Shown here piece after piece: positions 24,894-35,055 of a DNA stretch of 64,000 nt (position 1 is its first letter; each line of letters opens with the position of its first letter). Under the pieces are notes generated by a model, which was given only the letters and a program-made list of their open reading frames with translations, did no database searches and was not told the DNA's origin. The stretch is from Methanotrichaceae archaeon (lineage in GTDB: Archaea; Halobacteriota; Methanosarcinia; Methanotrichales; Methanotrichaceae), in contig CAWDLW010000008.1 in NCBI GenBank assembly GCA_963803145.1, positions 192,001 through 256,000 of the forward strand. Direction: 5' to 3'. The translations under genes and the position numbers were made by a program.

Positions 24894-25988
24894 ATGATGA
24901 TTTTAATAGCAGGCATCAGTGTCAGGCATATCGCCTGCTCAGCAGCCAGGGCAGGCTGCTCAGTTATCGCTGCTGATTGCTACTGCGATCTAGACTTAGA
25001 ACGGTGTACCTCACATACGATCCTGCTCCCAGAGGAAGATGTGACGCGAAATCTTCAGGAGTATATCGATATGTTCTCTCCTGATGCTGTTATCCTGGGG
25101 CCGGGGATTGAGGAGACAAGGGTAAAGAATGTTCGCGTTTTAAACAACTCCTCTGAAAAGATCGCTCGAGTCTCCGATAAGCTGTGGTTGGCTCGCTGGC
25201 TGGAGAGCAAAGGCTTTCCAAGCATAAAGACGCAAGCATCAGTTGACGACATGAATTTTCCCGCCATCGTAAAGCCTCGCAAAGGTGCTGGGGGTGTGGG
25301 CTGTGAGCTTATCCAAAATAAAATTGACCTATCGCTTGGGGACGACGTGATCGTCCAAGAGTTTATAAAGGGCTTGCCTGCTAGCGTCTCCACTATTGGA
25401 AACGGTCACGAAGGACGAGCATTAGCTGTGAATGAGCAGCTCATAGGCGCTAGTTGGACAGGAGCGCGCGGGTTTAGATATAGTGGAAACATCACGCCAT
25501 TAGAGGCGCCGTCACAAGGGATCGCGGAGATAGCCGAGGATATTACAACTGAGCTGGGGCTTATAGGAAGCAACGGCGTGGATTTTCTGCTTACTGAGAA
25601 AGGCCCAGTTGTTGTGGAGGTAAACCCGCGTTTTCAGGGCAGCATTGATACTGTTGAGCTTTCAACAGGCATTAACGTATTTAGCGCACACCTGGAGTCT
25701 TTCGATGGCATCCTCCCTGAGTATCCCAATCCAGAAAGGGTTGCGGGAAGGGCGATAATCTATGCAGAAGATGATTTATCGATCGATGAAGATCTGAGCT
25801 CAGTTTGGACAACGGATATCCCACGGATTGGATCGATTATAAAAAAGGATGATCCTGTTGCGTCTATCCTGGCCACCGGCAAGGACAGAGAGGGCACCCT
25901 GAGTTTGCTCATGGATAGAGCAACAGGGCTGCGGGGGAGTTTAAGAGCTTTCTCGAAGGTATCAAATGCAGGGCAGCCTTTGCAATAA
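24894..25988 (+). CDS. ATP-grasp domain protein (methanogen COG2232-like)
   Basis: DCYCDLD, DKLW, VKPRKGAGG, QEFIKG, GVDF, EVNPRFQG. Confidence 0.88.
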   Translation: MMILIAGISVRHIACSAARAGCSVIAADCYCDLDLERCTSHTILLPEEDVTRNLQEYIDMFSPDAVILGPGIEETRVKNVRVLNNSSEKIARVSDKLWLARWLESKGFPSIKTQASVDDMNFPAIVKPRKGAGGVGCELIQNKIDLSLGDDVIVQEFIKGLPASVSTIGNGHEGRALAVNEQLIGASWTGARGFRYSGNITPLEAPSQGIAEIAEDITTELGLIGSNGVDFLLTEKGPVVVEVNPRFQGSIDTVELSTGINVFSAHLESFDGILPEYPNPERVAGRAIIYAEDDLSIDEDLSSVWTTDIPRIGSIIKKDDPVASILATGKDREGTLSLLMDRATGLRGSLRAFSKVSNAGQPLQ

Positions 25989-26232: not shown

Positions 26233-26248
26233 CGGAAGATGCCTTCCG
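26233..26248. promoter_or_regulatory. NrpR-type operator candidate GGAA-N6-TTCC
   Basis: CGGAAGATGCCTTCCG with perfect 5-bp arms, ~85 bp upstream of the RHH gene, beside the nitrogen cluster. Confidence 0.5.
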
Positions 26249-26333: not shown

Positions 26334-26882
26334 ATGAAGTCACCTGAAAGGATTACCATTGCACTCGATGAAGAAACTGCAGGCCTGTTCAAGAAGATGA
26401 AGGAAGACCTGGGCATGTCCCAGAGCGAACTTATGCGTGAGTCGCTGAAGTTCTTCGGCAAGCACAAATCACTCTTTGACTTTGCTGAGGACAAGAAGGT
26501 CTATACACATGCAGAGATGCTGTCTGCGGGAGAACACATAATCCTTGATATCGATCACTGGATTTTATTCCTGAGCTTCATTGAGACACATCCAGATAAG
26601 CAAAAATTCTGGGATATGCATAAAGAGGTCAGCCAGGCCCATGCAGAGCAGTTTAAACATAAGCTCTATAATGCGGAGAGCATTCTTAAGCGTCTGGAGA
26701 TCTGCAACCTTTTCCAGCTAAGCAGGACATCAAAGAATGAGTTCACTCTGATCTTCGGATCGGATCTTGCTAAAAAGTTTGTTCGGCTGGAGCTGGAGGA
26801 GATCTTTGCAGGAATGGGATTCCTGGTGGAGATCAAGGAGGACTTTTCCAAGCTCAGGCTGAAGGTAATACACGACCTCTAA
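26334..26882 (+). CDS. Ribbon-helix-helix (CopG-like) transcription regulator with C-terminal putative ligand-binding domain
   Basis: ERITIALDEET...SQSELMRESL RHH pattern; GAGG RBS. Confidence 0.85.
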   Translation: MKSPERITIALDEETAGLFKKMKEDLGMSQSELMRESLKFFGKHKSLFDFAEDKKVYTHAEMLSAGEHIILDIDHWILFLSFIETHPDKQKFWDMHKEVSQAHAEQFKHKLYNAESILKRLEICNLFQLSRTSKNEFTLIFGSDLAKKFVRLELEEIFAGMGFLVEIKEDFSKLRLKVIHDL

Positions 26883-26994: not shown

Positions 26995-27414
26995 CTATGG
27001 GTTCTTCCTGCTTCTCCCTAGCACCATCTGTTTCGTCGCCCTCTCTGCCTCGATACTCCTTCGGCACACTGGACATACCCATATCCATTCGAGGCCGCTC
27101 GAGTCCTTCTGTAAATTGGACGGCAAGGCCTTCTCTATATACCTCAGCATCGGCCCAGTTGCATAGCGTGTACCGCAGATCTTACAAGGCACAAGATCAA
27201 AGGCCACAGTGGGCTCCTCGCTCTCAGGCTCGAAGGGAACAAGGGTCAGCGCCTTTGCGGGGCAGAACTCAACACACAGATCGCACTCTTCTTTGCATTT
27301 CTTCCAATGGATTGACCTTTTTTCAGGCGTCTCCTCGCGAACGATGTTCTGGTTAGGACAGACGTTGGAACAGGAGAAGCACCCTAGACATTTGCTTGCA
27401 TCAACTTTGATCAT
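26995..27414 (-). CDS. 4Fe-4S binding protein
   Basis: CLGCFSCSNVCP, CKEECDLCVEFCP, plus CKICG...CPVC. Confidence 0.9.
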   Translation of the reverse strand: MIKVDASKCLGCFSCSNVCPNQNIVREETPEKRSIHWKKCKEECDLCVEFCPAKALTLVPFEPESEEPTVAFDLVPCKICGTRYATGPMLRYIEKALPSNLQKDSSGLEWIWVCPVCRRSIEAERATKQMVLGRSRKNP

Positions 27415-27848
27415 CTTCTACCTCCATGTGCTACAGCTATGGCTGCCCTCGCTCTTGCGCGCTTCGATGCAAGCTCGAAGTCTGTGCTCAGGGCGTTGGC
27501 AGGGCAGGTTATGATGCATGTCGGTGTCTCTCGTCCTGCGCATAAGTCGCATTTATGCGCAACCTTATCCGACCAGACGACCCCGAAGGGACATGCCAAT
27601 CTGCATAGCCCGCAGCCCGTGCATTTTTCAAGTGCAAAGGCTGTGCGCTCTCCATCTTTTGAAAGAGCACCTGAGAAACAGGCCATAGTGCATGTCGCCT
27701 CCTCGCAGTGGTGGCAGAAAATTGGTACGGAGGCATGGTCCCCCACCATATGCACATTCACATGCCCTTTTCCGCCATGGACTCTTTTACATGCCACTTC
27801 GCAGGATCTGCAGCCTATGCATCTGCTTATATCAACATAAACGGGCAT
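27411..27848 (-). CDS. Multi-4Fe-4S electron-transfer subunit (HydN/CooF/FdhB-like)
   Basis: CIGCRSCEVAC, CHHCEEATC, CTGCGLCRLACP, KCDLC...CIITCP. Confidence 0.9.
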   Translation of the reverse strand: MPVYVDISRCIGCRSCEVACKRVHGGKGHVNVHMVGDHASVPIFCHHCEEATCTMACFSGALSKDGERTAFALEKCTGCGLCRLACPFGVVWSDKVAHKCDLCAGRETPTCIITCPANALSTDFELASKRARARAAIAVAHGGRR

Positions 27849-27850
27849 CT

Positions 27851-29902
27851 TTAGTCACTCCCTGCAATCTTACAGACAGAGACTTTGAATTCAGGGATTC
27901 TCGACTCTGCATCCCTAGAATCCGTGGTCAGGATATTCGTTCCAGGGAAATGGAATGGCATGAAGACGACACCGCGCTTCACACGATCTGTGATACGAGC
28001 CATAGCCGTAGTTTCACCCCGAGGCGTAGTAATTACCACCTCATTCCCATCCGCTATCTTCAGCTTCGACGCATCTGCGGTGTTAATCTCCACAAACAAA
28101 TCAGGTTCGCGTTCAATCAGCGATGGGCTCCTGCGGGTCATTGAGCCGGCATTATGATGCACTACGACACGTCCAGTCGTCAAAATAAACGGATACTCCC
28201 ATCCGGGTTCCTCTGAGGGCGACCTGTACTGCACAGGGACTATAGCAGCTTTACCTCCAGGCAGCTTAAAGCCCTGTGAGTGCAATATCGGCGTCCCCGG
28301 ATGATCCGAGCTCGGGCATGGCCAGACCAGGCCATGTGAGCTCAGTTGTTCTGAGTTCAGCCGTTCATGAGTGATGCCTCCATAGGCTGGCACTAGCCTA
28401 TTGATCTCCGCCGTAACAGATGCCGCATCTGGATAGTTGAACTCAAGGCCAAGCCTTCGAGCAACATCACAGATGATATCCAAATCGGATCTTGCCTCAC
28501 CAGGAGGCTCAAGAGCCTTGTTGCTCCACTGAACGCGCCTCTCAGTAGATGTGTAGGTGCCTTCCTTCTCAGCCCAAACCGATGCCGGAAGAACGATATC
28601 CGCCAGCTGAGCCGTGGCCGTCATGAATATGTCCTGTACAGCTAGAAAGTCGAGGTTTTCCAGAGCATCTCTTGTATGGCTGCTTCTGGGATCGGAGTTT
28701 GCGGGGTCCTCTCCCACGATATACATAGCCTTGATCTCGCCATTGCCGGCTGCATCGATCATCTCAGTAGCTGTGAGTCCGCGGCCAATAGGAATGCCGC
28801 TAACTCCCCATGCTTTCTCGAAGAATTTTGCTGTTTCAGGATCATCGGCCTTTCTGTAGCCCGGATAAAACTCCGCAAGAGCACCCATATCGCATGCGCC
28901 CTGCACATTGTTCTGGCCTCTCAGGGGCATTATGCCTGTTCCGGGTCGTCCGAGGTGGCCTGTAATCAGCGCCAGATTGGCGATGGCCTGAACGTTATCT
29001 GTTCCTGTAGTATGCTGTGTGATTCCCATTGAGTAAACTATGGCTGAGGCCGGAGAGATTGCATATGCACGGGCAGCGCGAATTATATCGTCTGCCGGGA
29101 TTCCAGTTATCGCTCCCGCCTTTTCAGGCGTATAATCGGAAACAGCTCCTCCCAGCTTCTCATATCCCGTCGTCCACTTAGCTATGTACTCATTATCGGT
29201 TAGCCCTTCATTTATGATCACATTTGCAATGCCGTTTAACAGGGCTACATCAGTGCCAGGCTTTATCTGCAGGAAAATATCGGCCAGCCAGGCTGTATGA
29301 GTCATCCTCGGGTCGGCTACTATTACCACAGCGCCTGCATCTTTGGCCCTGTGAATCCAGCGGGAGAGGACAGGATGATTCTCGGCTAAGTTCGAGCCAA
29401 TGATGAAAATGCATTTTGAGTTTGCGAGGTCTGAGATAGGGTTCGTCATGCCAGCCGCACCAAGCGTCCTATTCAAGCCCACAACGGACGGCGCATGACA
29501 TAGGCGCGCACAGTTATCGATATTGGGTGTACCAAAGCACCTGGCCATTTTCTCGACCAGGTAGTTCTCTTCGTTGGTACATTTTGAAGAGGATAAGAAC
29601 CCCACACTTCCAGGTCCATATTCCTTTATGGTTCCTGCAAGGCTCTTTGCAACTCTATCAAGGGCTTCATCCCAGGATATTCTGGCCCAGCCATCACCCT
29701 TTCGCTTTAGAGGATGTCGTAGCCTATCCTCATGGTAAAGGATCTCCAGGGCGGCGTTCCCTTTGGGGCATAAAGCACCCTCACTTGCCGGGTGCTCAAG
29801 CATGTATTCGATCCCCGTAGCTTTTTCCTTTTCCACTGTAATATAAAATCCACAGCCTGCAGCGCAATACGGACAGATCGTTGGAACAAGCATTTTTGGC
29901 AT
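27851..29902 (-). CDS. fdhF: Formate dehydrogenase alpha subunit (Mo/W-bis-PGD, Cys-type)
   Basis: CPYCAAGC..LCPKG Fe-S motif; CARLCH ligand with His; LRGQNNVQG; PEFK; no Tat signal. Confidence 0.93.
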   Translation of the reverse strand: MPKMLVPTICPYCAAGCGFYITVEKEKATGIEYMLEHPASEGALCPKGNAALEILYHEDRLRHPLKRKGDGWARISWDEALDRVAKSLAGTIKEYGPGSVGFLSSSKCTNEENYLVEKMARCFGTPNIDNCARLCHAPSVVGLNRTLGAAGMTNPISDLANSKCIFIIGSNLAENHPVLSRWIHRAKDAGAVVIVADPRMTHTAWLADIFLQIKPGTDVALLNGIANVIINEGLTDNEYIAKWTTGYEKLGGAVSDYTPEKAGAITGIPADDIIRAARAYAISPASAIVYSMGITQHTTGTDNVQAIANLALITGHLGRPGTGIMPLRGQNNVQGACDMGALAEFYPGYRKADDPETAKFFEKAWGVSGIPIGRGLTATEMIDAAGNGEIKAMYIVGEDPANSDPRSSHTRDALENLDFLAVQDIFMTATAQLADIVLPASVWAEKEGTYTSTERRVQWSNKALEPPGEARSDLDIICDVARRLGLEFNYPDAASVTAEINRLVPAYGGITHERLNSEQLSSHGLVWPCPSSDHPGTPILHSQGFKLPGGKAAIVPVQYRSPSEEPGWEYPFILTTGRVVVHHNAGSMTRRSPSLIEREPDLFVEINTADASKLKIADGNEVVITTPRGETTAMARITDRVKRGVVFMPFHFPGTNILTTDSRDAESRIPEFKVSVCKIAGSD

Positions 29903-29974
29903 CTTTATCCCTAACAGTTTGTTATCTCACAGCATTTTAGTTTCAAGATGCATTTCCTTTTCGGAGAGATTTCA

Positions 29975-30781
29975 TTAAGCGTAAAGCTTACCATAAGGCC
30001 TCTTTGACTTTGGAGTCAACCTGATGAAATTCTCTTTGAGAATTTGATCTTTCCTCAAATGAAGACTTGGGAAGCGTTCGACAAACTCTGAGACGTAACC
30101 TTCCACAACGTCTCTATCGATGTCATTTAGCTGCGATATCTCCACCTGGGCGCCAACCTGGGTTTTATCTACGGATCCTCGCAGATAGATCACGCCCCCG
30201 TGCATTCCAGTGCCTATGAAGTTGGCCTTATGCGGGCGTCCTTCGAGTCCCAGAAGGATCACTATGCCGCCAGCCATATATTCTCCGAGGAAATCCTGGG
30301 AAGTGCCTCCTATCACGACTACAGGCCTCTTCTCTTCATACTCCTTCATATGCAGAGCAGTCCTGTAGCCCACATTGTCTCGGACGAAGATCTTGCCGCC
30401 TCGCATACTGAACCCGAGTACATCCCCTGCCCGTCCCTCAACAGTGATATCTCCTGCATCCATAGTATTCCCAACGCCGTCCTGAGCATTGCCGTGAACT
30501 ACCAGGCTGTGGCCGTAAAGGAATGCTCCCAGATCGTTCCCAGGGGTTCCGAAGATCTCAATATCCATAATCTTTCGCTCTGGAGAGTACAGTCGTGTGC
30601 CGATGTACCTCTGTCCGCACACATTTCTTAAAACGACCTTCTTCACGCCCGAGAGCATGAGATCCCTGAGTCTATCATTGAGCTCTTTTGTAGCGAGTCC
30701 AGCGGCATCGATCTCCGCAGACTCCATTCCTTCGGCCTCATTCCGAGGCTTTGATCCTGTTGCCACTTCCGCCCTCGCCAT
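29975..30781 (-). CDS. Glutamate synthase GXGXG beta-helix subunit (GltB domain 3)
   Basis: GQRYIG, GTPGNDLG, GNAQDGVGNTM, GEYMAGG, GTGMHGG. Confidence 0.92.
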   Translation of the reverse strand: MARAEVATGSKPRNEAEGMESAEIDAAGLATKELNDRLRDLMLSGVKKVVLRNVCGQRYIGTRLYSPERKIMDIEIFGTPGNDLGAFLYGHSLVVHGNAQDGVGNTMDAGDITVEGRAGDVLGFSMRGGKIFVRDNVGYRTALHMKEYEEKRPVVVIGGTSQDFLGEYMAGGIVILLGLEGRPHKANFIGTGMHGGVIYLRGSVDKTQVGAQVEISQLNDIDRDVVEGYVSEFVERFPSLHLRKDQILKENFIRLTPKSKRPYGKLYA

Positions 30782-30787
30782 CTTGGT

Positions 30788-32302
30788 TCACTCTCCAGCG
30801 CCCTTTATGCCGAGGACATCCAGCTCCCACTCGTGTAGGCCAATGCCCCTAAGATGATCGCGGTTTCCTCGCAAGCTTTCAAGAGCATTGATTCCCATGC
30901 CGCCAAGCATCTCCTGGATCTCATGAGACCATGCATTCAGCAGGTTGGACAGCCTTTGAGCAGCGATTTCGGTATTCAGCCTTCCTGACAGGCGCGGGTC
31001 CTGTGTGCATATGCCCCAATTGCACTTTCCTGTATAGCACTTTTGGCAGAGGTTGCAGCCCATTGCGATTAGCGCAGCCGTGCCTATATAAACAGCATCA
31101 GCACCCAAGGCTATAGCCTTAATTACATCGGCGCTGCATCTTATTCCACCTGCTGCAACTATAGAGCATCTATTCCGTATCCCTTCGCTTTTCAGGCGGC
31201 GATCTAATGAAGAGATGGCGAGCTCAATGGGTATTCCTACATTATCCCTTATAGCCTTTGGAGCGGCACCGGTTCCGCCTCGTAGACCATCGATAGCTAT
31301 AATATCAGCACCCGCACGGGCAATACCCGAACCTATTGCCGCGAAATTATGTACTGCAGCAATCTTTACTGAGACTGGCTTCTCATAGTTCGTGGCCTCC
31401 TTCAGGGCATGGATGAGCATCGATAGATCTTCAATTGAATATATATCATGGTGAGGCGCCGGCGAGATTGCATCTGTTCCGGCAGGGATCATTCTCGTAG
31501 CTGCGACCATTGGCGAGACCTTTTCGCCTGGCAGATGGCCTCCGATTCCAGGCTTTGCCCCCTGGCCAACTTTGATCTCTACTGCAGAAGCACAGTTCAG
31601 GTACTCTGCATCTATTCCAAAGCGGCCCGATGCTACCTGGACTATTGCGCAGCGGCCAAACAGCTCCCTCATCTCCTTCGGCAGGCCGCCCTCGCCTGTG
31701 TTGAAGAACGTTCCAGAGTTGCAGGCCGCGGTGGCTAAAGCCTTGAATGCATTTAGACTGATGGCTCCGTAGGACATAGCCGAAAATAGGATCGGTGTCT
31801 CAATCATCAGATTAGGTCCAATATTGGTTTCAATCTTGACATCGCCATCCGCTGTGTTTATGCTCATGAGATCGGGCTTAGATCCTAGGAATGTTCTAAG
31901 CTCCATTGGCTCTCTAAGTGGATCGATGGAAGGGTTGGTTACCTGTGATGCGTTTAGCACAATGTGATCCCAATAGATCCTGAACGGCTTATCGTTACCG
32001 CACCCTGTCAGGATTACTCCACCGGTCTCTGCCTGTCTCTTCAGATCCTCAATTTTCTCCCTAGACCAGCTTGCATTTGCTTTATAGAATGATGGATTGG
32101 GCCTGACGACTATGGCATCCTTTGGGCAGAAGATGACGCATCTCTGGCATCCGGCGCATTTGTATTCATCAGATATAAGCCTGTCATGAACTTCGTCATA
32201 ACTATGCGTGCCGAAGGCGCACTGACGCTCGCATCCACGGCACTGGCCGCATTTTTCTTCGTCCCTTATGATCTGGAACTCAGGAAACAGGAATGACTTC
32301 AT
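30788..32302 (-). CDS. gltB: Archaeal glutamate synthase FMN subunit with N-terminal 2x4Fe-4S
   Basis: AMSYGAIS, NTGEGG, QVASGRFG, EIKVGQGAKPGIGGHLPG, GGTGA, CNLCQKCYTGKC. Confidence 0.95.
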   Translation of the reverse strand: MKSFLFPEFQIIRDEEKCGQCRGCERQCAFGTHSYDEVHDRLISDEYKCAGCQRCVIFCPKDAIVVRPNPSFYKANASWSREKIEDLKRQAETGGVILTGCGNDKPFRIYWDHIVLNASQVTNPSIDPLREPMELRTFLGSKPDLMSINTADGDVKIETNIGPNLMIETPILFSAMSYGAISLNAFKALATAACNSGTFFNTGEGGLPKEMRELFGRCAIVQVASGRFGIDAEYLNCASAVEIKVGQGAKPGIGGHLPGEKVSPMVAATRMIPAGTDAISPAPHHDIYSIEDLSMLIHALKEATNYEKPVSVKIAAVHNFAAIGSGIARAGADIIAIDGLRGGTGAAPKAIRDNVGIPIELAISSLDRRLKSEGIRNRCSIVAAGGIRCSADVIKAIALGADAVYIGTAALIAMGCNLCQKCYTGKCNWGICTQDPRLSGRLNTEIAAQRLSNLLNAWSHEIQEMLGGMGINALESLRGNRDHLRGIGLHEWELDVLGIKGAGE

Positions 32303-33425
32303 CTTTTACCATCCTTCTGCTTTTTAGCTCACCTATTACAGGCTCTCCCCCATCGGGCGTCCAGACATTGTCAAGCTCCGGCGAAATGAGCCTTATTGGC
32401 GCCTCCTCAGATGATAAGTAAAACATAGGGCCTTTAGTAGCAGCAGTGAGCGGCCGAAGCCTAATTCTATCCGTAAGACCAATCATTCTGCCGCGCTGAC
32501 CAATGATTATTGAGAATGGACCATTCATAAGCAATGGCCCGTAGACCATTCGGAGTGTTGTAAATAGCTTCTTATCTTTATCGTTCATTCTGTCGATTGC
32601 ATCCCAGATCGGCGGTGCCAGTATCTTCGAGGCCACCTCGATTGGAAGGTTTTGCCTCCTCATTAGAAGATCTACGGCGTAGGTTATGACCTCGGTATCA
32701 GTCTGTAAGGTGCATGCATATCCGTACATCTCGAGATACCAGCGGTTCGTTCCATAGGATGAGATCTCGCCGTTATGAACGACGGTCTGATCCAGAAGCC
32801 CAAAGGGATGGGCTCCTCCCCACCATGCCTGGGTGTTTGTGGGAAATCTGCCGTGAGCAGTCCAGATATAGCCTCGATAAAGCTTATCCAGCATGAAGTA
32901 TTCCGCAATCTCCTCAGGATAACCGACGCCCTTGAAGCAGCCCATGTCCTTTCCTGAAGAGAAGACGTAAACGTTGTCAAGTTTTGTGTTAACCCACATC
33001 ACTTTGGCGACAACATAATCGTCATCCGGGATCAGTACGTCGTCTCCTTTCTTGTTAGGAGCGACGAAGTACCTCCAGGCAAGGGGTGGGTCCTTCACCC
33101 AGACACTATCATCGTGAGGTATCTCTTCATCATGGACTATATCGAAGCAGCTGCAAAGGAAGGCTTCAAGCTCAGTCTTGGCGCGTACCTTGTCCTCGTG
33201 GCTAATGGCCGTGAACATGACATGAAACGCGTAATAATCCCTGAAATCAGGATAAATTCCGTAGACTGCAAACCCACCACCTAGGCCGTTGCCGCGGACG
33301 TGCATGTTTGTGATTGCCTTGATGACGCCCTCGCCTGTGAACCTATCCCCGTCCCGGTTCATAGCCCCGAAGATGGAGCAGGAACAGATCTCCTTATTGT
33401 AGAGCTCCCTTCTTTTCCTAGGCAT
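32280..33425 (-). CDS. Glutamate synthase class II glutamine amidotransferase subunit (GltB domain 1)
   Basis: CSIFG, RGNGLGGG, HGRFPTNT, WWGGAHPF, HNGEI, TDTE, DRIRLRP. Confidence 0.93.
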   Translation of the reverse strand: MPRKRRELYNKEICSCSIFGAMNRDGDRFTGEGVIKAITNMHVRGNGLGGGFAVYGIYPDFRDYYAFHVMFTAISHEDKVRAKTELEAFLCSCFDIVHDEEIPHDDSVWVKDPPLAWRYFVAPNKKGDDVLIPDDDYVVAKVMWVNTKLDNVYVFSSGKDMGCFKGVGYPEEIAEYFMLDKLYRGYIWTAHGRFPTNTQAWWGGAHPFGLLDQTVVHNGEISSYGTNRWYLEMYGYACTLQTDTEVITYAVDLLMRRQNLPIEVASKILAPPIWDAIDRMNDKDKKLFTTLRMVYGPLLMNGPFSIIIGQRGRMIGLTDRIRLRPLTAATKGPMFYLSSEEAPIRLISPELDNVWTPDGGEPVIGELKSRRMVKDEVIPVS

Positions 33426-33510: not shown

Positions 33511-33549
33511 TTTTATAGCTATTTAAGAAATATTCATAAATTGTATGAA
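33511..33549 (-). promoter_or_regulatory. Promoter module of the glt-fdh operon: palindrome TTCATA-N5-TATGAA 15 bp upstream of a TATA box
   Basis: TTCATAAATTGTATGAA (33533-33549); TATAAAA on the minus strand (33517-33511). Confidence 0.7.
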
Positions 33550-33613: not shown

Positions 33614-33647
33614 ATAAAAATAAAAATGTGAGGGGCTGAGGATAGCC
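33614..33647 (-). terminator. Putative glnA terminator
   Basis: GGGCT-N6-AGCCC hairpin at the stop codon, followed on the minus strand by TTTTTATTTTT. Confidence 0.5.
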
Positions 33648-34982
33648 CTATAGTAGCGGCAGATACCTCTCCAGCTCCCACTGAGTGACGCTTGTTCTAT
33701 AGCTGTCCCACTCGGCCTTCTTGTTATTTATGAATGCATTGAATACGTGCTCTCCGAGGGCCTCCTTTACAAGCTCGCTCTTCTCAGTGATTCCTATTGC
33801 CTCATTCAGACTGCCCGGCAGAGATCCAATTCCTGCTGCCTTTCTCTCATCCTCCGTCATATGGAAGATATTCTGCTCCTGGGGTGCAGCCAGATCATAT
33901 TTGTTGGCCATTCCGGCCAAGCCTGCGGCGAGCATCACAGAGAACGCTAGGTACGGGTTGGCTCCTGGATCGGGGCTTCTGTACTCAAGCCTCGTAGCGG
34001 TCTCCTTTCCTGGCTTATACATCGGAACTCTGATGAGCGCGGACCTATTTCGCCTCGACCAGCAGATGTAAACAGGTGCCTCATATCCTGGAACGAGTCT
34101 CTTGTAGGAGTTTACCCACTGGTTTGTGACTGCAGTGATCTCTGGAGCATGCTTCAGAAGGCCTGCGATGTAGTACTTGGCTTCATCTGAGAGATGGTAT
34201 TGATCGCCAGCGTTGAACATGATATTCTTCTTGCCCTGGAAAAGGGACTGGTGGACGTGCATTCCTGAGCCGTTCTGGCCGAAGATTGGCTTCGGCATGA
34301 ATGTCGCATAGCAACCGTATTTCTGGGCGATCTCCTTCACTGTAATCCTGAAGGTCATTACCTGATCTGCCATTGACAAAGCATCGCTGTACCTCATATC
34401 GATCTCATGCTGTGAAGGAGCGACCTCGTGGTGGCTGAACTCAACATCGATTCCGAGCGCATCCAATGCGAGGACGGTATCGCGGCGGAGGTCGGATGCC
34501 GCATCCAGAGTTGTCAGGTCGAAGTATCCTCCCTTATCCAGTATCTCTGTGCCCTGATCGTTCTTGAAATAAAAGAACTCAGGCTCTGGACCGACATAGA
34601 AGGTATAACCCTTATCCTTGATGCGTGCGAGATTTTTCTTAAGGATCTGCCTCGGGTCACCCTCATATGGAGTACCATTAGGATTCTGGATGTCGCCGAA
34701 CAGCCTTGCTACAGCATTCTCCTGCTGTCTCCATGGGATGATCCTGAATGTGGTTGGATCGGGCTTTAAGATCATATCGCTCTCTTCGATTGATTGGAAT
34801 CCCGTGATGGATGAGCCATCAAATCCCATGCCCTCGGAAAACGCTCCATCAAGCTCATTGGTATTTATGGCAAAGCTCTTTGGAACTCCTAGGATATCTG
34901 TAAACCACAGTCTCACAAATCTTACATCATACTTATCTATTGCAGCAAAGACATCGTCTTTTGTCTTTATTTGCATGTCCAT
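33648..34982 (-). CDS. glnA: Glutamine synthetase type I
   Basis: FDGSS, GPEPEFF, HHEVAPSQHE, FMPKP, NGSGMHVHQS, YKRLVPGYEAP, RNRS, RLEYR; AGGAGG RBS. Confidence 0.98.
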   Translation of the reverse strand: MDMQIKTKDDVFAAIDKYDVRFVRLWFTDILGVPKSFAINTNELDGAFSEGMGFDGSSITGFQSIEESDMILKPDPTTFRIIPWRQQENAVARLFGDIQNPNGTPYEGDPRQILKKNLARIKDKGYTFYVGPEPEFFYFKNDQGTEILDKGGYFDLTTLDAASDLRRDTVLALDALGIDVEFSHHEVAPSQHEIDMRYSDALSMADQVMTFRITVKEIAQKYGCYATFMPKPIFGQNGSGMHVHQSLFQGKKNIMFNAGDQYHLSDEAKYYIAGLLKHAPEITAVTNQWVNSYKRLVPGYEAPVYICWSRRNRSALIRVPMYKPGKETATRLEYRSPDPGANPYLAFSVMLAAGLAGMANKYDLAAPQEQNIFHMTEDERKAAGIGSLPGSLNEAIGITEKSELVKEALGEHVFNAFINNKKAEWDSYRTSVTQWELERYLPLL

Positions 34983-35016: not shown

Positions 35017-35055
35017 ATTTATAGATATTTGAGATCCCTTCATAATGTTTATGAA
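35017..35055 (-). promoter_or_regulatory. Promoter module of glnA: palindrome TTCATA-N5-TATGAA 15 bp upstream of a TATA box
   Basis: TTCATAATGTTTATGAA (35039-35055); TATAAAT on the minus strand (35023-35017); same geometry as the glt promoter. Confidence 0.7.

Follow-up and report, generated by a model that had tools for sequence, protein, structure and literature searches.

Split glutamate synthase genes followed by formate dehydrogenase and polyferredoxin genes in Methanotrichaceae: a candidate formate-linked GOGAT

Methanothrix and its relatives, which rank with the greatest biological sources of methane, do not grow on formate, although several formate dehydrogenase genes are present in their genomes. 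The roles of these enzymes in Methanothrix are called not clear in the portion available of a previous study (PMC6687939), and the electron donor of the split glutamate synthase (glutamine 2-oxoglutarate aminotransferase, GOGAT) of Archaea has hardly been studied; a 2021 review, in its accessible part, treats Archaea only as carrying open reading frames (ORFs) for individual domains of glutamate synthase, GltS (PMC8097209). Both subjects meet in the window analysed here, a stretch of 64,000 nucleotides (contig C8, positions 192001-256000) from the 4.13-Mb, 51-contig assembly of a Methanotrichaceae archaeon, in which the genes of a split GOGAT are followed by those of a formate dehydrogenase (FDH) and two small iron-sulfur proteins, FeS1 and FeS2. 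The question raised by this locus is whether formate supplies the electrons for glutamate synthesis. Judged from gene content and gene order, formate driving GOGAT is plausible, and it is the FeS1-FeS2 pair rather than FDH that accompanies GOGAT constantly.

The gene cluster and its predicted products

Loci, genomes, genera and contigs are coded L, G, g and C, with G000 being the genome of this window, and the nearest public records are L040 and L082. The ORF listing places seven minus-strand genes in the order glnA, gltB1, gltB2, gltB3, fdhA, FeS1 and FeS2. For the last six it returns exactly the coordinates (26995-33425) and spacings (-23, 6, 72, 2 and -4 nt from gltB1 to FeS2) of an earlier note on this DNA, which had described six co-directional genes and had proposed that the FDH drives the glutamate synthase.

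The first three of these six genes carry the three domains of a glutamate synthase. GltB1 (32280..33425; 381 amino acids, aa) is the glutamine amidotransferase subunit, with a class-II (N-terminal nucleophile, Ntn) amidotransferase domain (PF00310, GATase_2) at 52.3 bits against a cut-off of 19.9. GltB2 (30788..32302; 504 aa) joins an N-terminal 2x[4Fe-4S] ferredoxin domain (Fer4_9; Fer4 dicluster in Pfam) to a flavin mononucleotide (FMN)/synthase domain (PF01645, Glu_synthase, 479.2 bits), and GltB3 (29975..30781; 268 aa) is the GXGXG beta-helix subunit (PF01493, 110 bits, cut-off 32.5). GltB2 matches the FMN domain of solved bacterial GltB large subunits (1.3e-69), and in 23 aligned sequences the eight Cys of its ferredoxin domain are invariant, as are C416, C419, C422 and C427 near the FMN/synthase domain. 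In a domain search of all contigs, gltB2 was the only strong PF01645 gene. By these domain models gltB123 is a split archaeal-type glutamate synthase and the only GOGAT of the organism. N-methylglutamate synthase, which has three GltB-like subunits as well, was considered for these genes and set aside, as no such family was matched in NCBIfam and GltB2 carries redox clusters.

The Pfam search of the window confirmed that the usual electron-input genes are missing: neither GltD nor FrhB was found in or beside the cluster, which lacks both the Fer4_20/Pyr_redox_2 gene of an NAD(P)H-GOGAT (GltBD) and the FrhB/FdhB-type gene of the putative F420-dependent glutamate synthases FGltS(I)/(II), with the limit that the genome elsewhere has one lone GltD-like gene and three FrhB/FdhB-type genes.

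After gltB3 and a 72-nt spacer (29903..29974), which has a purine-rich stretch before the ATG and no T-run, comes fdhA (27851..29902; 683 aa), predicted to encode a cytoplasmic FDH of the FdhF/FdhH type with Cys as active-site residue and Mo/W-bisPGD (bis-pyranopterin guanine dinucleotide) as cofactor. It is followed by FeS1 (27411..27848; 145 aa), a HycB/HydN/CooF-type polyferredoxin (Fer4_11) with four Cys4 motifs, and by the last gene of the unit, FeS2 (26995..27414; 139 aa), a HycF-like 2x[4Fe-4S] protein with multiple Fer4 matches, invariant Cys and a conserved C-terminal CxxC...CPxCRR tail. Among solved structures, FeS1 is best matched by HycB4 of hydrogen-dependent CO2 reductase (HDCR; 7qv7_B, 1.6e-22), followed by an Fe-S hydrogenase subunit (9mqx_E), HycB of formate hydrogenlyase (FHL; 7z0s_B, 8.9e-19) and HDCR HycB3 (7e-17), and FeS1 also matches the N-terminal polyferredoxin part of the AegA/YgfT models with 81.6 and 71.1 bits (positions 8-158 and 8-136; cut-offs 1003 and 1154). 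The profile of FeS2 matches HycF of FHL along almost its full length (7z0s_F, 1.8e-12, residues 6-120 against 37-161 of 180), and the protein reaches 7.9e-11 and 42 bits with the HycF-type NCBIfam model PRK12387, below its cut-off of 204. In sequence, FeS1 and FeS2 resemble HycB-like and HycF-like wires, and in FHL and HDCR such proteins link FdhF to a bound partner enzyme.

The prediction of a six-chain complex suggested in the earlier note was run with three chains, FeS1, FeS2 and GltB2, each entered as an alignment and with GltB2 as the scored partner. The predicted complex reached an interface score (ipSAE) of 0.59 (runs 0.60, 0.59 and 0.59). This clears a mark that 58 of 80 solved complexes cleared, as did 2 of 110 mismatched pairs, and it falls in a band that is more often wrong than right unless there is a good prior; both of the mismatches that passed, but just 7 of the 80 solved complexes, score 0.60 or less. 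The runs agreed in at least 90% of contacts with a partner pLDDT (predicted local distance difference test) of at least 80, and the best of three controls, which included one with FeS1 replaced, scored 0.00. Binding of GltB2 to FeS1/FeS2 is predicted on this weak support, and together with the HycB/HycF likeness it makes plausible an electron chain from FDH over FeS1/FeS2 to the ferredoxin domain of GltB2.

Because the host is archaeal, oligo-T runs and AT-rich boxes were inspected in place of a sigma-70 promoter/terminator scan. Two T5 runs resembling archaeal terminators lie directly after the stop codon of glnA (33616..33626, minus strand), and of 28 related loci 26 have a run of at least five T within 120 nt after glnA. 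No such run was present on the sense strand between the start of gltB1 and the stop of FeS2, including the 72-nt spacer between gltB3 and fdhA, where the earlier note had considered a terminator as a sign against its proposal. Among 13 relatives with the complete cluster, the gap between gltB3 and fdhA measures 10-15 nt in seven and 44-72 nt in the other six. The 17-bp palindrome TTCATA-N5-TATGAA lies both 57 nt upstream of the glnA start (35039..35055) and 108 nt upstream of the gltB1 start (33533..33549), these being the two matches in the window against 0.01 expected. Throughout the genome, with spacers of N3-6, there are 7 matches against about 2 expected, three of which precede glnA, gltB1 and a glnA paralog on contig C2 (G000:C2:17255), and 21 of 28 complete glnA-gltB1 spacers of relatives keep the palindrome with no more than two mismatches. 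We regard it as a candidate nitrogen operator, distinct from the NrpR-type operator motif GGAA-N6-TTCC. The latter motif was rejected for this cluster, with a single window match (1.36 expected) at 26234, outside the cluster promoters.

Given the T-runs, the palindromes and the tight gaps, glnA alone and gltB1 through FeS2 as one transcript are the likely units, both under the same putative operator. Here glnA (33648..34982, minus strand) encodes a type I glutamine synthetase (Gln-synt_C 450 bits; TIGR00653 553 bits, cut-off 429) and probably forms its own transcript. The co-transcription assumed in the earlier note is likely, and its nitrogen co-regulation is plausible with the same palindrome in the glnA and gltB1 promoters.

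Variants of the cluster within and outside the family

The family was sampled with 61 genomes belonging to 16 genera. At least 31 of them have an FdhA orthologue (identity of at least 66%), 49 have gltB2 and 50 have FeS2, and the order gltB2-gltB3-fdhA-FeS1-FeS2 appeared in 23 of the 30 orthologous fdhA loci. When GTDB genomes were scanned with a pattern from the FeS2 alignment, 114 homologues were confirmed, and the following counts refer to the loci of the best 80 of these. All except one, a 3.9-kb contig labelled Methanoregula, carry the labels Methanotrichaceae, Methanothrix, Methanosaeta, Methanocrinis, Methanosarcinales or uncultured archaeon. The cluster is complete in 41 loci (type A), among them L066, L090, L111, L113 and L114, whose records bear the titles Methanothrix harundinacea and Candidatus Methanocrinis. 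In 11 loci (type B), gltB3 is directly followed by FeS1-FeS2 without fdhA, and two more have this order together with fdhA remnants. Type C, in which FeS1'-fdhA-FeS1-FeS2 stand without gltB, accounts for four loci and, with fdhA remnants, for three more, and in five loci (type D) FeS1-FeS2 come after a PyrK-like gene. The remaining loci comprise four divergent second FeS1-FeS2 pairs with unrelated neighbours, two decayed clusters and eight loci cut by contig ends. With its order kept in 23 of 30 and in 41 of 80 loci, across many genera, the arrangement is not due to chance, and the neighbourhood survey proposed by the earlier note was positive for Methanotrichaceae.

The loci without fdhA point to FeS1-FeS2 as the partner of GOGAT. 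Type B arose by deletion: in L040, from a sister species, a clean internal deletion of about 1.95 kb between gltB3 and FeS1 has joined what is left of fdhA, roughly 27 nt from its beginning and 77 nt from its end (L040:2347-2460), and fragments of fdhA remain in L086 and L102. In a tree built from FeS1+FeS2 (68 rows), at least five changes are required for the type B label, and the presence of fdhA changes seven times. The ratio of nonsynonymous to synonymous substitution rates (dN/dS) of FeS1+FeS2 is 0.07-0.21 in type B, with a type A median of 0.114 (440 pairs).

Outside the family, the positions of gltB3 (E <= 1e-40) and of FdhA-like genes (E <= 1e-190) were compared by eye, contig by contig, in a phylum sample of 251 genomes. 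At these thresholds, gltB3 was present in 131 of the genomes that do not belong to the family and an FdhA-like gene in 60, and the two never lay within about 13 kb of each other (closest in G197), more divergent FdhA-like genes and other phyla being outside this search; the gene order of the cluster was not found in the 243 other genomes of the phylum. The linkage of gltB with fdhF, for which the earlier note proposed a survey of Methanotrichaceae and other archaea, was confirmed within the family and was not found elsewhere in the phylum sample at these thresholds.

Fourteen further GOGAT loci were inspected. In five of them, all outside the family, two genes stand directly upstream of gltB1, one for a polyferredoxin (Fer4_11) with 34-38% identity to FeS1 and one for a flavoprotein (Pyr_redox_2). 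Split GOGAT may have in this pair an NAD(P)H input module that is so far undescribed. The pair (L126:6117-7916, L127:1521-3109, where the two are fused, L131:1356-3123, L132:9783-11536 and L133:9197-10965) precedes gltB1-gltB2-gltB3, and its flavoprotein is rubredoxin-reductase-like. A sixth locus, L138, reads glnA-gltB1-gltB2-gltB3-FrhB-like, as in the putative F420 type described in the accessible part of a published study (PMC3448663). At L135 (1241-2581) a HdrD-like protein with two CCG domains and a Fer4 dicluster overlaps the gltB1 start; this genome belongs to another family of the same class, and the HdrD-like protein is another possible electron-input partner. The other seven loci, six outside the family and L137, have no redox neighbour. 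Split GOGAT often, not always, has a redox module, and the HycB-type polyferredoxin recurs with different dehydrogenases.

Those seven loci are among a number of observations that weigh against the FDH acting as a part of GOGAT, and that at the same time suit the explanation that the two are neighbours, not partners. FdhA-FeS1-FeS2 would then be a formate:ferredoxin oxidoreductase of its own, or a CO2 reductase making biosynthetic formate, which shares an operon through history or common anabolic regulation, while GOGAT would be fed by free ferredoxin via GltB2 and FeS1/FeS2 would use the general ferredoxin pool. In genus g6, of which L137 is an example, GOGAT is present in 7 of 7 genomes and FeS2 in none, without an FdhA orthologue. 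As fdhA was repeatedly lost while GOGAT and FeS1-FeS2 were kept, GOGAT does not require input from formate. Genera g4 and g11 (type C) have the FDH module away from glnA-gltB123, which lie elsewhere in these genomes with no FDH gene in the flank of about 650 nt seen after gltB3. At L105 (1857-7417), the one type C locus with annotated flanks, fdhA-FeS1-FeS2 directly follow a CooS-type CO dehydrogenase (CODH, 623 aa) and a CooF-like polyferredoxin, an arrangement that hints at a CO-to-formate or formate-linked CODH unit; L104, L107 and L118 share the upstream FeS1-like gene of L105. The statement of the earlier note that the FDH replaces the usual electron-input subunit goes too far in view of these losses of fdhA, at least five in number, of GOGAT standing alone in g6 and of the module found with CooS/CooF in g4/g11.

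The module also outlives GOGAT. In G017 (L072), fdhA-FeS1-FeS2 are kept beside decayed gltB3 fragments without gltB2. Type D corresponds to type B minus glnA-gltB123: its PyrK-like gene is the one that type B kin have upstream of glnA, and FeS2 is followed by the same genes in both. Its five genomes, which form one clade on the FeS1+FeS2 tree, have no PF01645 gene at all. In these genomes, without GOGAT or an FdhA orthologue, FeS1-FeS2 are intact, with a dN/dS of 0.22-0.46 that is relaxed yet below 1; the raised value fits a partly lost function after loss of GOGAT. The divergent second FeS1-FeS2 pair (L100, L108, L112 and L115) has neighbours such as a periplasmic binding protein and an SDH-type protease, and co-occurs in some genomes with a GOGAT-linked pair, L092/L100 and L074/L112 coming from the same assemblies. 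The persistence in type D and this second pair therefore suggest that FeS1-FeS2 also have a role of their own. Paralogous modules of the fdhA-FeS2' type lie away from GOGAT in G013, G025, G029, G031 and G053, and the synteny evidence comes from kin members of one family, to which the gene order is restricted.

Further points on the same side come from the genome itself. Its lone GltD-like gene, on C11, adjoins a tetratricopeptide repeat (TPR) gene. Its only FocA/FdhC-type formate channel gene is split by an insertion sequence (IS) element carrying a DUF772/DDE transposase (L139:9882-11944; G000:C16:45881-47943), which questions formate uptake in this organism. The channel gene is intact in the sister genome G019, whereas G004, a genome that has lost fdhA, yielded no copy. 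FocA/FdhC genes occur in 28 of 31 genomes with a GOGAT-linked FdhA orthologue (one of them split) versus 18 of 30 without; as support for a formate link this co-occurrence was rejected as too weak and too confounded by kinship.

Other observations speak against mere proximity. After at least five independent deletions of fdhA, FeS1-FeS2 are still found behind gltB3 and under purifying selection, which would be unexpected for mere subunits of an FDH. Polyferredoxins like FeS1 stand beside gltB1 with a different dehydrogenase in five unrelated genomes, the 10-15 nt spacings between gltB3 and fdhA are kept over family-level divergence, and solved complexes show proteins of the HycB and HycF types as wires that lead to a bound partner; the complex score compared with its controls adds weak support. 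In view of both sides, we consider the explanation by neighbours possible, if doubtful. For the reading that suits the evidence best, in which the FeS1/FeS2 wire feeds GOGAT and the FDH is an optional, nitrogen-co-regulated input, we see the chances as evenly balanced.

The formate dehydrogenase subunit

By model and motif tests FdhA is a formate dehydrogenase alpha subunit of the FdhF/FdhA type, with predicted activity. It passes TIGR01591 (NCBIfam) with 850.7 bits against a cut-off of 666.25 and carries the Pfam domains Molybdop_Fe4S4, Molybdopterin and Molydop_binding. The closest solved relatives are F420-dependent FDH (9t1s_L, 4.5e-198), HDCR FdhF (7qv7_S, 3.6e-194) and a methanogen FDH (7bkb_D). 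The catalytic set that the earlier note had read from the sequence was recovered in alignments with solved FDHs: the Cys of CARLCH faces selenocysteine in 9t1s_L (CARLXH) and Cys in 7qv7_S (CARLCH), the following His is kept, and RGQNNVQG with its Arg is identical. CARLCH is present in 46 of 46 FdhA orthologues. Also as noted earlier, there is no export signal, the N-terminus MPKMLVPTICPYC having no twin-arginine leader.

Since fdhA was repeatedly lost in relatives, leaving the remnants in L086 and L102 and the scar in L040, and since the formate channel gene of this genome is broken, the FDH part of this genome might be a relic in decay that no longer has a function. Against this stand an intact frame of 683 aa with all motifs, 92% identity of FdhA to the copy of sister genome G019, and a median dN/dS of 0.104 over 741 orthologue pairs, which indicates purifying selection, and we consider such decay very unlikely. 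That the molybdopterin enzyme is instead an assimilatory nitrate (or other oxyanion) reductase in a plain nitrogen-assimilation operon, as its position beside glnA and GOGAT and strong partial scores for NasC (NF047855, 544.9 bits) and NasA (NF041323, 354.5 bits) would suit, is extremely unlikely, as both scores fall far under their cut-offs of 1100 and 1000 while TIGR01591 is passed, solved FDHs (4.5e-198 to 6.9e-153) outrank periplasmic nitrate reductase (4.1e-118), the Cys-His and RGQNNVQG motifs align with FDH active sites and are kept in the 46 orthologues, and no nitrite reductase gene lies within the cluster.

Elsewhere in the genome, an FdhA paralog on C15 stands with an FrhB/FdhB-type gene, FmdE and FdhD, and a glutamate dehydrogenase gene is present. 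On C2 (L037:4949-18968), FdhA paralog 3 stands beside a Fer4_22 protein and an NAD-binding/DHODB-type Fe-S protein. About 6.5 kb from this paralog, a gene encoding 532 aa, which match Glu_synthase in part (53 bits), is divergent from the glnA paralog, and the palindrome lies between them.

Immediate neighbours of the six genes are glnA upstream and, according to the Pfam search, a convergent ribbon-helix-helix gene downstream (182 aa, window 26334-26882, plus strand). Beyond the latter lies the gene of a 364-aa ATP-grasp_3 protein (window 24894-25988, plus strand), which is likewise convergent with the cluster on its downstream side; neither gene showed a link to the cluster.

Known systems, proposed mechanism and significance

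By analogy, the cluster is like HDCR and FHL in its wiring and is not a member of either, as a HycB-type polyferredoxin stands next to FdhF and no hydrogenase subunit was found in the six genes or their flanks. HDCR (FdhF, HycB3, HycB4 and HydA2; 7qv7) likewise combines an FdhF-type catalytic subunit, with one [4Fe-4S] domain, and two small polyferredoxins that wire it to a second enzyme; its FdhF is the second-best solved relative of FdhA, HycB4 is the best for FeS1, and HycB3 matches as well. In HDCR, however, the partner is an [FeFe] hydrogenase, whereas here it would be the split glutamate synthase; a second HycB takes the place of the HycF-like FeS2; and here there is no sign of filament formation and electrons would flow from formate outwards only. 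The soluble arm of E. coli FHL (FdhF-HycB-HycF; 7z0s/7z0t) suggests the same order of carriers, with matches of FdhA to FdhF (6.9e-153), FeS1 to HycB and FeS2 to HycF, but the present cluster lacks hydrogenase and membrane subunits, and its PRK12387 score stays under the family cut-off.

Among glutamate synthases, the putative FGltS(I)/(II) types that methanogens have (Susanti and Mukhopadhyay 2012, PMC3448663) and the clusters of FrhB10 with GOGAT in anaerobic methanotrophic archaea (ANME; Chadwick et al. 2022, PMC9012536), as far as the accessible parts of these papers describe them from gene context, also set a dedicated electron-input gene beside a split GOGAT. There the input is an FrhB homologue (F420H2), whereas here it would be FdhA with two polyferredoxins. 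Bacterial NADPH-GOGAT (GltB-GltD) and ferredoxin-GOGAT share the chemistry and the three GltB domains, but the domains form three separate proteins here, GltB2 has its own N-terminal 2x[4Fe-4S] domain, and no GltD is adjacent. E. coli AegA/YgfT, named 'formate-dependent uric acid utilization protein' in NCBIfam, similarly have a HydN/HycB-type polyferredoxin linking formate oxidation to a flavoprotein, presumably in dependence on FdhF, as the family name suggests. That flavoprotein is of the GltD family and not GltB-like, and the FeS1 matches lie far below the family cut-offs.

If the FeS1/FeS2 wire does feed GOGAT with the FDH as an optional input, gltB1-gltB2-gltB3-fdhA-FeS1-FeS2 would form one nitrogen-regulated unit downstream of a separately terminated glnA, with a cytoplasmic FDH module built like the soluble arm of FHL or like HDCR. 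FdhA would oxidise formate at its Mo/W centre and pass electrons through its own [4Fe-4S] cluster to FeS1 (four [4Fe-4S]) and FeS2 (two [4Fe-4S] and the Cys4 tail). This wire would dock on GltB2 at its N-terminal 2x[4Fe-4S] domain and hand the electrons to FMN, which would reduce 2-iminoglutarate. Where fdhA has been deleted, the wire would need another donor, for which ferredoxin is the obvious candidate. We infer co-transcription, docking, the direction of electron flow and the dependence on formate from the genomes compared here.

More tentatively, and a little short of an even chance in our view, the six proteins may form one physical, nitrogen-regulated 'formate:glutamine 2-oxoglutarate aminotransferase', with split GOGAT serving as a chassis for interchangeable dehydrogenase cartridges (FDH, FrhB, NAD(P)H flavoprotein or HdrD-like), connected by a HycB-type adaptor where a polyferredoxin is present. 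Such an FDH-linked GOGAT is predicted from genomes, and no published description of one was found in the full texts within reach of the search, supplementary tables lying outside its scope.

If confirmed, formate would become a fourth donor for glutamate synthase, besides NAD(P)H, ferredoxin and, putatively, F420H2. The natural variants, with the complete cluster, with fdhA deleted, with GOGAT deleted or with the module beside CooS, offer ready comparisons. For the obligately acetoclastic Methanotrichaceae, one of their FDHs would gain a concrete job, in which formate from syntrophic partners serves as a reductant for nitrogen assimilation, an anabolic use that would spare catabolic ferredoxin.

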